Shown here: piece after piece, positions 8,858-26,180 of the stretch | How positions within the stretch are numbered: position 1 is the first letter of the stretch | How the letters are laid out: every line of letters starts with the position of its first letter | Source of the DNA: an uncultured Candidatus Kuenenia sp. | Lineage (GTDB): Bacteria; Planctomycetota; Planctomycetia; Pirellulales; UBA1268 | Length of the DNA: 64,000 bases | Assembly (NCBI GenBank): GCA_964498325.1 | Contig: CAZCHF010000001.1 | Location: forward strand, 127,225-191,224 | Reading direction: 5' to 3' | Made by a program: the position numbers and the translations under genes | The notes under the pieces: generated by a model | Told to the model about the DNA's origin: nothing | The model's input: the letters and a program-made list of their open reading frames with translations, nothing else | Databases searched by the model: none

Positions 8858-11185
8858 ATGCCACTGCGAAGCGCCTCGTGGACATCTCTTCATACAATCG
8901 TGGCGTTTGTCGGCCTGGCGGGAGCCTTGCCCGCCGAGGCGCAAGAGCCCCGCGAACCGGCTTCGCCACGGGCCCGCGTTTCGGACGTCGATCGCGAAGC
9001 CAAGCGGCTCTATGACCAGGCCGTCGAACTGCTCGACATGAAGCAGTTCGATCGCGGCCTCGGGATGCTCGAAACCGTCGCCCGCGATCATCAGGGCACG
9101 ATGCTCGCCCACATGGCCCACATGGCGATGGGCAAGCATCATCTCGGCCAGCGGGACTACCCCAAGGCGCTCAACCATTTTCTGCTGCTCGCGCGTCTGC
9201 TGGAACCCAAGCCCGGCGAAGAACAGTCGCCCCAGGAGAAAGAACTGCACCGCGAGGCCCTCTTCAGCGCGGGTCAAGCCAACTATGAAGCGGGCCAGTA
9301 TGCCGCCTGCTTTCCGCTTTTTCGCCGCGTGACCGAAGTGGCCGAAAAAACCCCGTGGGCCAACCAGGCCTACTACTACATCGGCATGAGCCACTACCAG
9401 CTCAAGAACTGGAACAAGGCCATCGACTCGCTCTCGCTTGTCGGCACCGAGGTCGAGGAGCCCACCGGTGACGGCGCTGATGCGATGGGCCGCGTCGAGA
9501 TCGGCGAGCGGTTCTACGCGAAGATCGAAGATGCCGACATTCCGATCATGCGGCGACTCGGCCAGCCGGTGCGGGCCCGCGTGCGGGTGCAAAGCGGCGA
9601 CGTCGAAGAGATCGAGGGCGCGCCGGTCCCCGGCAAAGACAATCAGGCACTCGCCTCGGCGCCGACAGCCCTCGGCCTGCCCAAGCCCGGGGATGGCATC
9701 ATTCAAATGGTCGGGGGTGATGTGCTCAGCGTCACCTATTTGGACGACAGCACCAAGGACGGGAGCAAGGGCATCGAACGGACCGGCAGCGTGAAGGCCG
9801 TCAGCACGGGCGTCGTGGGTTTTTATCTTGGCGACATGACCACGCCCGCGTCGGTGGCATATCCGGGTGAGCCGCAGGTGGTGATGCTCCGCGACGCCGA
9901 CCTCGATCGTTCGGCGGCTGCCGAGACCGTCGTGCTCACGGTGACGTCGCGGTACAAGGTGGAAGCCGCCGAGACGGACGACTCGGATGACCTGCTCGAC
10001 ATCTTCGCCAAGGAGGATGACAAGGACTCGTGGCGAGACCGCGACACGATCACGATCACGCTCGTGGAAACAGGTCAGGGCCCGGAGATTCGCAGCGGCA
10101 CGTTCGTCGGCAAGATTCAGCTTGCTGATGCCGACACCGGCACGTCCCCCTCGGCCGATGACGACGTGCTCCATGTGCGGGAGCTCGACGAGCTCGTCGT
10201 GAAGTACACCGACGCCGTTCACCTCCACGGCAACGAGCCTCGCGAGACCGAGGCCAAGGTGAAGGTTTCGGGCTCGGTGAACTCCGGTGTATCGGCCGAT
10301 CAGTACGTCGTCTTCGACGAGCTGCTCAAGTCGCGCAAAGGCGTGGTCGAGGCCGAGGCACTCGTGGGTCTCGGCGCCATCTACAAGGACATGGGCCTCG
10401 ACGAGCGGGCCAAGCAGCGGGCCAAGGAGGCCCTCGATCGCATCGACCCGATCATCGTCGCCCGTCAGAAACTCCCGGGCGACGTCGTCGAGACGGCATT
10501 TCGGCTCAAGTGGGAAAGCGAGCTTTTGAAGGACGATTTCGAGGCGGCCTCGGCGACCTGCCTTGCCTTCAATCGGCTCTATCCGGAGTCGGTGCTCGCC
10601 GATCAGGCCCTCATGGCCCTCGGGCGCAGCCTCACAGACCGTGGCGATTTCGCGAAGGCGGTCACGGTTTTCGGGAAGGTGCTCGAGCTCCAGAATCCGA
10701 TCTCGGCCGCCGAGGCCCAGTTTCGGATCGGTGAGGCGCTGCAGAAGGATGCCGAGCTGAAGGCCGAGGCGGCGGATCTCCATGGGAGCAAGTGGGGAAC
10801 AGGTGGACTCAGCAAGGCCACAGCGCTTCAGAACATGATGGGGCCGGCGATTACCGCGTATCGTCGGTGCTACGACCTCTTCCCGGAAAGCTCGTTTGCA
10901 GCCGAAGCGCTGGGCCGCGTCGTGCGCCACTACGTCGATACGGAGAACTTCGCGCAGGCCTCGGAGCTTCTTCAGAGTGTCTTCAAGGACTATCCCGACG
11001 CCGCCTTCCTCGACGAGATGCTTCTGCTGTGGGCCAATGTCGCCTTCCGCATGGGTGATACAGGGCTCGCCAAGGCAAAATTGCGGCAGCTCGTCTTCGA
11101 TTACCCATCAAGCCCGCACCTCGAAGAGGCGCAGCGCAAGCTCACGGGCCTCGAAGGACAGTCGACCGAAGGGGGCAGCCCATGA
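8858..11185 (+). CDS. Secreted TPR protein with two internal Ig-like (DxD...ETG..G.F) modules
   Basis: Signal-like N-terminus; N- and C-terminal TPR arrays (LYPESVLADQAL, DYPSSPHLEEA); central beta-rich modules shared with the next two genes. Confidence 0.85.
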   Translation: MPLRSASWTSLHTIVAFVGLAGALPAEAQEPREPASPRARVSDVDREAKRLYDQAVELLDMKQFDRGLGMLETVARDHQGTMLAHMAHMAMGKHHLGQRDYPKALNHFLLLARLLEPKPGEEQSPQEKELHREALFSAGQANYEAGQYAACFPLFRRVTEVAEKTPWANQAYYYIGMSHYQLKNWNKAIDSLSLVGTEVEEPTGDGADAMGRVEIGERFYAKIEDADIPIMRRLGQPVRARVRVQSGDVEEIEGAPVPGKDNQALASAPTALGLPKPGDGIIQMVGGDVLSVTYLDDSTKDGSKGIERTGSVKAVSTGVVGFYLGDMTTPASVAYPGEPQVVMLRDADLDRSAAAETVVLTVTSRYKVEAAETDDSDDLLDIFAKEDDKDSWRDRDTITITLVETGQGPEIRSGTFVGKIQLADADTGTSPSADDDVLHVRELDELVVKYTDAVHLHGNEPRETEAKVKVSGSVNSGVSADQYVVFDELLKSRKGVVEAEALVGLGAIYKDMGLDERAKQRAKEALDRIDPIIVARQKLPGDVVETAFRLKWESELLKDDFEAASATCLAFNRLYPESVLADQALMALGRSLTDRGDFAKAVTVFGKVLELQNPISAAEAQFRIGEALQKDAELKAEAADLHGSKWGTGGLSKATALQNMMGPAITAYRRCYDLFPESSFAAEALGRVVRHYVDTENFAQASELLQSVFKDYPDAAFLDEMLLLWANVAFRMGDTGLAKAKLRQLVFDYPSSPHLEEAQRKLTGLEGQSTEGGSP

Positions 11186-26180: not shown

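Follow-up and report, generated by a model that had tools for sequence, protein, structure and literature searches.

Two giant paralogs in a conserved operon

The stretch analysed here (the window) comprises 64,000 nucleotides (nt) of contig CAZCHF010000001.1 from an uncultured Candidatus Kuenenia sp. (assembly GCA_964498325.1, positions 127,225 to 191,224), placed in the Pirellulales of the Planctomycetota. Two very large genes lie in tandem on its forward (+) strand, here named giant A (11182..18786, +, 2534 amino acids (aa)) and giant B (18783..26180, +, 2465 aa). The pair is located inside a run of same-strand genes that are joined mostly by 4-nt overlaps, and the genes of this operon follow a conserved order: two tetratricopeptide repeat (TPR) proteins of 620 and 810 aa, A, B, a small protein, ExbB, ExbD, ExbD, a 163-aa anchor, a DUF4159 protein, a membrane protein and a DUF6288 protein. 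About 100 orthologs of A (44-90% identity) and about 90 orthologs of B (45-89% identity) were found. The nearest relatives of the window are labelled Planctomycetota/Pirellulales and show 83-86% protein identity.

B is an end-to-end paralog of A with a signal peptide of its own. BLASTP joins both proteins in one colinear alignment (859/2583 identities, 33%; 1040 bits, E=0), which extends from residue 44 of A and residue 37 of B to the C-terminus and stays colinear even through the diverged part. The paralogy is far beyond chance. An earlier note on this DNA, made from the sequence alone, had described the two tandem open reading frames (ORFs) of about 2500 aa as end-to-end paralogs, and the identity of 33% over about 2,580 columns (E=0) bears this out; the motifs it quoted (EEG..G..QA..WL, D.WFL.TA, KGADG.I.PF.K.YG and YW...Y.R.T..FP.S.WAK) were all found. 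The N-termini of both A and B are signal-peptide-like and have no lipobox Cys.

The stop codon of A overlaps the start codon of B in an ATGA at 18783..18786 (+), as read in the sequence. From this arrangement translational coupling had been deduced, and with it an obligate 1:1 heterodimer of A and B that is kept in equal amounts. The overlap is indeed present in the window and in 19/67 related loci (start codons inferred), and to that extent it speaks for such a heterodimer. However, it is absent from most junctions: most of the remaining gaps are shorter than 70 nt, and a few among the 67 junctions reach 300-1,500 nt. Moreover, 4-nt start/stop overlaps are the usual junction along the operon (11182-11185, 18783-18786, 27447-27450, 28160-28163, 30310-30313, 32448-32451, 33716-33719 and 37687-37690; the sequence itself was read at 11182 and 18783, and the other overlaps are taken from ORF coordinates), so that A and B are not singled out by theirs. 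As the overlap is missing in many loci and recurs at other junctions of the operon, it says little on stoichiometry, and the support that a strict 1:1 heterodimer draws from translational coupling is weak. In a few A/B loci (L016, L023, L049 and L051), the two genes are separated by 500-1,500 nt instead of overlapping.

A 1471-aa antisense ORF (13594-18009, −) lies within A, and several further long antisense ORFs overlap A and B. Conservation at the protein level backs the genes on the + strand, and these ORFs are therefore most likely by-products of the G+C content of 65%. Scans for promoters and terminators at the operon start and at the junction between B and the genes that follow it gave sites no more numerous than in shuffled sequence. 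RNA-seq data across the A/B junction were sought as well; the sequence was found only in DNA metagenomes (biofilm), and one RNA run contains 5% of its words.

Retention of the pair and its single-giant relatives

Related loci were retrieved by similarity, using the best 80 of 348 and the best 80 of 303 matches. A genome scan with one genome per species gave 74 loci, and a metagenome scan seeded with single-giant proteins added 80 more. The 74 genome loci, which share a single gene order by ORF-by-ORF comparison, are labelled Verrucomicrobiota (Akkermansiaceae, Luteolibacter, Prosthecobacter), Planctomycetota (Pirellulales, Phycisphaerae), Lentisphaerota/Victivallales and Kiritimatiellia, the latter as metagenome-assembled genomes (MAGs). 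Orthologs of A and B often occur on the same contigs. In the 74 genome loci, every A with enough contig downstream has B after it (65/65), every B with enough contig upstream has A before it (66/66), and the order is fixed. The A/B-type loci from metagenomes that hold enough sequence upstream of B again have A before B. The check that the earlier note had proposed, whether both copies are always retained together, was thus run and came out in favour of joint retention. Strict co-retention in fixed order likewise speaks for the obligate heterodimer. In three MAGs (L021, L051 and L055) a second, shorter module consists of the 810-aa TPR gene, A, B and the DUF6288 gene, which here directly follows B. 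This indicates that the pair was copied as a pair.

Farther out, homologous operons commonly contain one giant only, and at this distance the observation that the earlier note had named as refuting its proposal is at hand. A handful of full-length relatives lie at a similar distance from A and from B (23-36% identity), and in 5/5 cases looked up they were the sole giant of the same operon. In one example the order is a 562-aa TPR protein, a 729-aa TPR protein, a giant of 2553 aa, a small protein, ExbB, ExbD, ExbD, a small protein and DUF4159. In the metagenome scan, 32/32 complete giants of this outgroup type that are flanked by operon genes on both sides had no clear second giant. In locus L154, a C-terminal TPR fragment lies at the contig end just upstream of a giant of the single type; it may belong to a second giant or represent the last part of an 810-aa-type protein. 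Gene order varies among single-giant loci, with at least three arrangements (TPR-TPR-giant-motor, giant-TPR-TPR-motor and TPR-giant-motor-DUF4159-TPR) seen in L077, L125, L129, L132, L137 and L146 and in L078 and L148-L158; some of their giants bear F5/8 type C domains. Where named, their family labels are Verrucomicrobiae, Verrucomicrobiota and Kiritimatiellia.

A HMMER search with the beta region against 1.84 billion cluster representatives returned 546 proteins at E<=1e-3, including 274 at E<=1e-30. The full-length proteins in the top 150 (n=101, representatives at 50% identity) comprise 85 single-giant types, 7 A and 9 B. In a neighbour-joining tree (a distance tree without support values), A and B form monophyletic sister clades, with the single-giant proteins outside. 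The duplication proposed in the earlier note is thus ancient and a single event, as the orthologs of A go down to 44% identity compared with 33% between A and B. The pairing that the note had called obligate holds within the A/B lineage, but not beyond it, where single-giant operons are common (5/5, 32/32 and 85/101 by the three counts). Accordingly, the machine does not need two different giants, and a heterodimer is not intrinsic to it. From the distribution and the tree, the one-giant operon is the older and more diverse state, and the A/B pair a derived one that is confined to one lineage.

Both copies are under equal constraint. Within-clade conservation of A and of B is equal in every region, for example 65.3% and 65.0% in the C-terminal TPR domain and 41.0% and 40.9% in the variable solenoid, so neither copy is decaying. 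This symmetry is a further point for the heterodimer, as is the similar abundance of both types in an unbiased library (7 clusters of A, 9 of B), and duplicates of homomeric proteins often become heteromers. On the other hand, the commonness of single-giant operons counts against it, and a dimer is indistinguishable from other assemblies by these sequence data. Taken together, a heterodimer of A and B is plausible, and in its strict form, obligate, 1:1 and set by coupling, we regard it as somewhat unlikely. The two copies are specialised, since 66 columns are conserved differently in A and B and 670 are conserved in one clade only.

The duplication is accompanied by another gene. A DUF6288/HEAT gene follows the membrane protein gene in 8/9 A/B-type operons with room for it, versus 0/18 single-giant operons (DUF6288-bearing loci: L021, L051, L055, L060, L065, L067, L071, L074, L107, L110 and L124). 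By this count its presence tracks the A/B duplication, and the two-giant state would have come with an extra secreted partner.

Domain architecture of the giants

A and B share one layout, in which a signal peptide is followed by an alpha-solenoid (about 1,050 residues), a beta-sandwich array (about 1,130 residues) and, at the C-terminus, a TPR domain of BamD/CpoB type (about 330 residues). In A, the solenoid covers about residues 26-1080 (nt 11257-14421, +), the beta-sandwich array about residues 1081-2205 (nt 14422-17796, +) and the C-terminal domain residues 2206-2534 (nt 17797-18783, +). The AlphaFold2 model of residues 26-1100 is an all-helical solenoid (pLDDT 90.7, pTM 0.78, 58 sequences), and that of residues 1075-2215 is all-beta and multi-domain (pLDDT 84.4, pTM 0.71). 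The alpha-solenoid N-half and the immunoglobulin (Ig) modules that the earlier note had proposed are therefore both recovered in the models, the latter with Foldseek matches to arrays of Ig and macroglobulin (MG) type. Its statement that the N-halves have diverged is correct in degree: A and B are 21-23% identical in residues 181-830, whereas the C-terminal TPR domain reaches 42% and the first beta modules 47-50%. Identity is 35% in the N-terminal TPR block, 33-35% in residues 831-1080 and 29-33% in the rest of the beta array.

Pfam and NCBIfam gave only TPR-type matches on the giants. They fall at the very start of the protein, near residues 1000-1077 and within the final ~330 residues, and this final stretch matches the YbgF/CpoB and BamD models below their cutoffs. 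A lies above the Pfam gathering scores of TPR_6 (57.8 bits, gathering score 26.3), TPR_14 (43.1, 23.5) and TPR_16 (40.7, 32.7), and B above that of TPR_6 (30.0, 26.3). Both proteins thus belong to the TPR repeat superfamily. The cutoff of the BamD model TIGR03302 (81.4 bits) was not reached by A (29.2) or B (38.7), and the lipobox Cys is absent from both N-termini. A sequence search of the PDB with A returned designed consensus TPR proteins only, which is informative of nothing beyond TPR. The top structural matches of the A solenoid are eukaryotic TPR scaffold subunits (Ski3, IFT-A subunits and Ctr9), and it also matches the periplasmic scaffold around the MotAB-type flagellar motor of Campylobacter jejuni (9hmf). 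With TM-scores of 0.11-0.20 and E-values of 1e-5 to 3e-3, this is a generic likeness among solenoids and not homology.

For the beta array, the top Foldseek matches were Ig arrays of archaeal S-layer proteins (8c8m, E=3e-22) and large adhesin repeats. The giants could accordingly be read as exported surface-layer or adhesin-like proteins with a function unrelated to the neighbouring motor genes. B also matches the anammox S-layer family below threshold (36.9 bits against a cutoff of 1400), and F5/8 type C domains are present in some relatives; both observations point in the same direction. However, the TM-scores to S-layer proteins are 0.13-0.17; TM-scores of 0.1-0.17 place the likeness to S-layer and MG arrays at the level of domains only. 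TPR and solenoid parts make up over half of each giant, and TPR/solenoid content is typical of periplasmic adaptors. In addition, Verrucomicrobiota, Planctomycetota, Lentisphaerota and Kiritimatiellota all retain the arrangement giant(s)-ExbB-ExbD-ExbD-anchors although the proteins are only 23-30% identical, which is hard to reconcile with a function apart from the motor. We consider a surface-layer role improbable.

The same search matched alpha-2-macroglobulins, complement C3/C5, TEP1 and CD109 (E 1e-9 to 1e-11), and Pfam gave a weak MG2 match, so that bacterial protease traps of the alpha-2-macroglobulin kind come into view. This reading was rejected, because the CxEQ thioester motif (C[GLA]EQ) occurs in neither A nor B. 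The MG2 match (19.1 bits) stays below its cutoff of 32.8, the TM-scores are about 0.1, searches turned up neither a thioester nor a receptor-binding domain, and such proteins have nothing that corresponds to the TPR halves. A protease trap is thus highly improbable.

Motor, anchors and other genes of the operon

The genes downstream of the giants include an ExbB/TolQ/MotA-family proton channel subunit (28709..29380, +; Pfam MotA_ExbB, 88.5 bits) and two different ExbD/TolR-family genes (29305-29868 and 29873-30313, +; Pfam ExbD, 57.8 and 58.9 bits). The Asp of the transmembrane helix is kept in both ExbD proteins (FSDIAFLL and MGDIAFLL). On the strength of the ExbB gene and the two ExbD genes with their transmembrane Asp, the operon is predicted to encode a Ton/Tol-type 5:2 proton motor.

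Two anchor proteins follow. The TolA/TonB-like anchor of 163 aa (30310..30801, +) has one transmembrane helix with a conserved His and Ser and a Pro/Ala-rich tail; across 39 loci an H-x7-S pattern and an acidic C-terminal ...EEDLFK are conserved, and there is no globular C-terminal domain. The membrane-anchored DUF4159 protein (30829..32451, +; Pfam DUF4159, 101 bits, in the C-terminal domain) has a TonB-like topology. In 52 loci, it consists of a conserved helix S-x3-S-x3-H...P, then a EPYRVPKGSGNPV motif, a poly-Lys linker and a globular domain. Thus, both anchors combine a helix of TonB/TolA type with an extended linker. TonB_C, TolA and vWA domains were found neither in the small conserved proteins nor in the C-terminal domain of the DUF4159 protein (Pfam, E up to 10). 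For the latter domain, Pfam at this threshold gives DUF4159 only, and a PDB sequence search gave one weak match, to the uncharacterised structure 4i66.

The last two genes encode a conserved membrane protein (32238..33719, +; it probably starts at ATG 32448, which overlaps the DUF4159 stop codon), which has no significant match to a Pfam or NCBIfam family, and a secreted DUF6288 and HEAT-repeat protein of 1324 aa (33716..37690, +; DUF6288 285.8 bits, HEAT_2 58.5 bits in Pfam) with a signal-peptide-like N-terminus. No functional papers on DUF4159 or DUF6288 were found in the literature.

Between B and the motor genes lies a small conserved protein (28160..28669, +) with no signal peptide, in which about 110 aa from about nt 28325 are conserved. 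It follows the giant or giants in most loci, both A/B-type and single-giant, and matches no Pfam or NCBIfam family. In the window, two genes identified by Pfam are placed between B and this gene (26404..28163, +), of which 26404-27450 is DUF1559 pilin-like and 27447-28163 encodes an EF-hand protein. They are absent downstream of B in all related loci, including the closest ones, L001 and L002, where the small conserved gene directly follows B. The two genes are an insertion specific to the window and stand outside the conserved operon.

Upstream of the giants, the operon starts with the secreted TPR protein of the 620-aa ORF (6863..8725, +; Pfam TPR_6 50.1 bits among others). Its probable start is ATG 6998 (MRRWFAL...), giving a signal-peptide-like N-terminus, and it has a sub-threshold match to the YbgF model. 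It shows no significant similarity to A past TPR-type matches. In most related loci, whether A/B-type or single-giant, the gene lies upstream of the one for the 810-aa TPR protein. The secreted protein of the 810-aa ORF (8753..11185, +; probable start ATG 8858) has a TPR/beta-sandwich/TPR layout with Pfam TPRs, and its gene is directly upstream of the giant in nearly all loci; in the window it overlaps A in the ATGA at 11182-11185. It scores 103.5 bits with the YbgF model TIGR02795 (cutoff 90.1) and 82.3 bits with the BamD model, and shares a beta-module motif with A (BLASTP E=5e-6). The 810-aa protein resembles a miniature giant, as it begins with TPRs, continues with 2-3 beta modules of the giants' kind and ends in a TPR domain.

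Elsewhere in the window, a PSCyt2/PSD1 (DUF1549/DUF1553) and DUF1501 gene pair is located at 38950-42896; such pairs are typical of Planctomycetota and Verrucomicrobiota. FloA flotillin and a 1416-aa NfeD form a pair at 53146-59136 (−).

A probable motor-linked envelope machine

We favour the reading that A and B are two paralogous, non-interchangeable scaffold subunits of one motor-linked envelope machine, and think that this is probably correct. The giants would be exported to the periplasm, where their TPR parts would dock on the inner-membrane anchors, that is, on proteins with a TonB-like helix with its conserved His and disordered Pro- or Lys-rich linkers. These anchors would be moved by the proton-driven ExbB/ExbD1/ExbD2 motor, and the beta array may reach or bind a target in the envelope, such as peptidoglycan, the outer membrane or a polysaccharide. 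Extended peptides are common ligands of TPR domains, and the TPR domain of CpoB binds TolA; it is tempting to speculate that the conserved EEDLFK tail of the 163-aa anchor is a candidate ligand for one of the TPR domains. The ancestral giant would have done the job by itself, as one giant does in most lineages, probably as a homo-oligomer; it is therefore most likely that A and B hold two distinct positions in one assembly, as a hetero-oligomer. Whether they touch each other directly within such a machine is, in our judgement, about evenly balanced.

Alternatively, A and B might be subfunctionalised paralogs that act side by side without contact, each linking the same motor to a different target or partner, one of them for instance to the DUF6288/HEAT protein. 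This is consistent with the concentration of paralog-specific conserved sites in domains of interaction type, with the solenoid residues 181-830, which are 21% identical between A and B and 41% within each clade, and with the restriction of the DUF6288 gene to A/B-type operons. No observation separates this from a heteromer, but the fixed adjacency and order and the copying of A and B together lean slightly towards a joint unit. We hold an arrangement without contact to be rather unlikely.

Several points weigh against the favoured reading of A and B as subunits of a motor-linked machine. The link between the giants and the motor is drawn from gene neighbourhood alone, and their placement in the periplasm and not at the surface from the signal-peptide-like N-termini alone. 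The cutoff of the CpoB/YbgF model TIGR02795 (90.1 bits) was not reached by A (68.0) or B (65.8), with scores split over 2-3 stretches, and a PDB sequence search with the C-terminal domain gave only weak BamD matches (E ~1e-3). Among the genes scanned in the 64-kb window, there was no match to the TolB and Pal/OmpA families, and profile scans found no outer-membrane component in the operon or elsewhere in the window. Furthermore, many loci come from MAGs with uncertain taxonomic labels, a few of which look wrong, and with retrieval based on similarity, rare genomes with A only or B only could be missed.

Comparison with known systems

The operon resembles Tol-Pal in its ExbB/TolQ and ExbD/TolR genes, in the TolA-like anchor built of a helix and a Pro-rich part, and in TPR domains that match the YbgF/CpoB model. 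It differs in having two ExbD paralogs, in lacking tolB and pal (operon and window) and in its anchors, which, unlike TolA, have no TolA/TonB C-terminal domain. CpoB has about 260 aa, whereas the giants are ten times larger, contain a solenoid and a beta array, and stay below the CpoB cutoff; it is the C-terminal domain of the 810-aa protein, not that of the giants, that passes it.

The Agl-Glt gliding machinery of Myxococcus combines one TolQ-like and two TolR-like proteins (AglR, AglQ, AglS) with several large TPR-rich proteins and TonB-like anchors. By analogy, the operon of the window may be likened to it in motor composition, large TPR proteins and TonB-like anchors. No relationship to Glt families was detected at the sequence level (Pfam, NCBIfam) and, unlike in Agl-Glt, genes for an outer-membrane barrel or adhesin are absent from the operon. 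To our knowledge, gliding is not known for most of these bacteria.

A survey of force transducers from 2025 (PMC12204202) described, starting from Tichowtungia aerotolerans (Kiritimatiellota), a locus of the Planctomycetes-Verrucomicrobia-Chlamydiae (PVC) group that contains an uncharacterised TPR gene, a gene resembling tolQ, two heterologous tolR-like genes and a membrane-tethered transducer. Its transducers are tethered to the inner membrane by an SHLS-type helix and carry a non-TonB C-terminal domain that was termed vWA; the function of the locus is given as unknown, and a gliding-type role was suggested (PMC12204202). The survey found no TolA/TonB homolog in a Kiritimatiellota species, and according to its supplement TolA was not found in a Lentisphaerae genome. 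By this description, the locus is like the operon of the window in its PVC host and in the order of TPR gene, tolQ-like gene, two tolR-like genes and tethered transducer. The exact SHLS spacing is not matched in the anchors described here, and the C-terminal domain of the transducer is DUF4159 by Pfam in our operon, compared with vWA in the survey. In the available parts of PMC12204202, the size of the TPR gene product, its solenoid/beta-array/TPR layout and the A/B duplication are not described. Literature on Tichowtungia aerotolerans held nothing further on the locus, and by title and abstract, none of the papers on giant genes of Planctomycetes concerns the A/B family.

Biological significance

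Ton/Tol-type motor operons are known as a kind, and the 2025 survey had already pointed out the PVC locus type as uncharacterised. The giant solenoid/beta-array/TPR proteins as conserved partners of the motor, the transition from a single giant to A and B and the accompanying DUF6288 gene appear to be new. In this widely conserved operon (at least 274 protein clusters at 50% identity), a Tol/Ton-type motor is coupled to secreted scaffolds of 2,500 residues, which makes it a candidate for an energised envelope machine of a new class. The A/B pair represents a natural experiment, in which a single-giant machine became a two-giant machine and a DUF6288/HEAT gene was added; comparison of both states should reveal which surfaces are important. 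Relatives of A are present in cultured Verrucomicrobiota such as Haloferula helveola, which brings genetics and cryo-electron tomography within reach.

Cell envelopes and division are unusual in PVC bacteria. A more far-reaching proposal, which we put forward tentatively, is an envelope machine of PVC bacteria driven by the proton motive force, in which the giants would be the periplasm-spanning working parts, driven via TonB-like anchors that lack a TonB domain, and which in one lineage would have turned into an A/B heteromer with a new DUF6288/HEAT partner. If this were true, the machine might be the missing TolA/CpoB-type arm of outer-membrane maintenance or division in PVC phyla, or a new device for motility or uptake.

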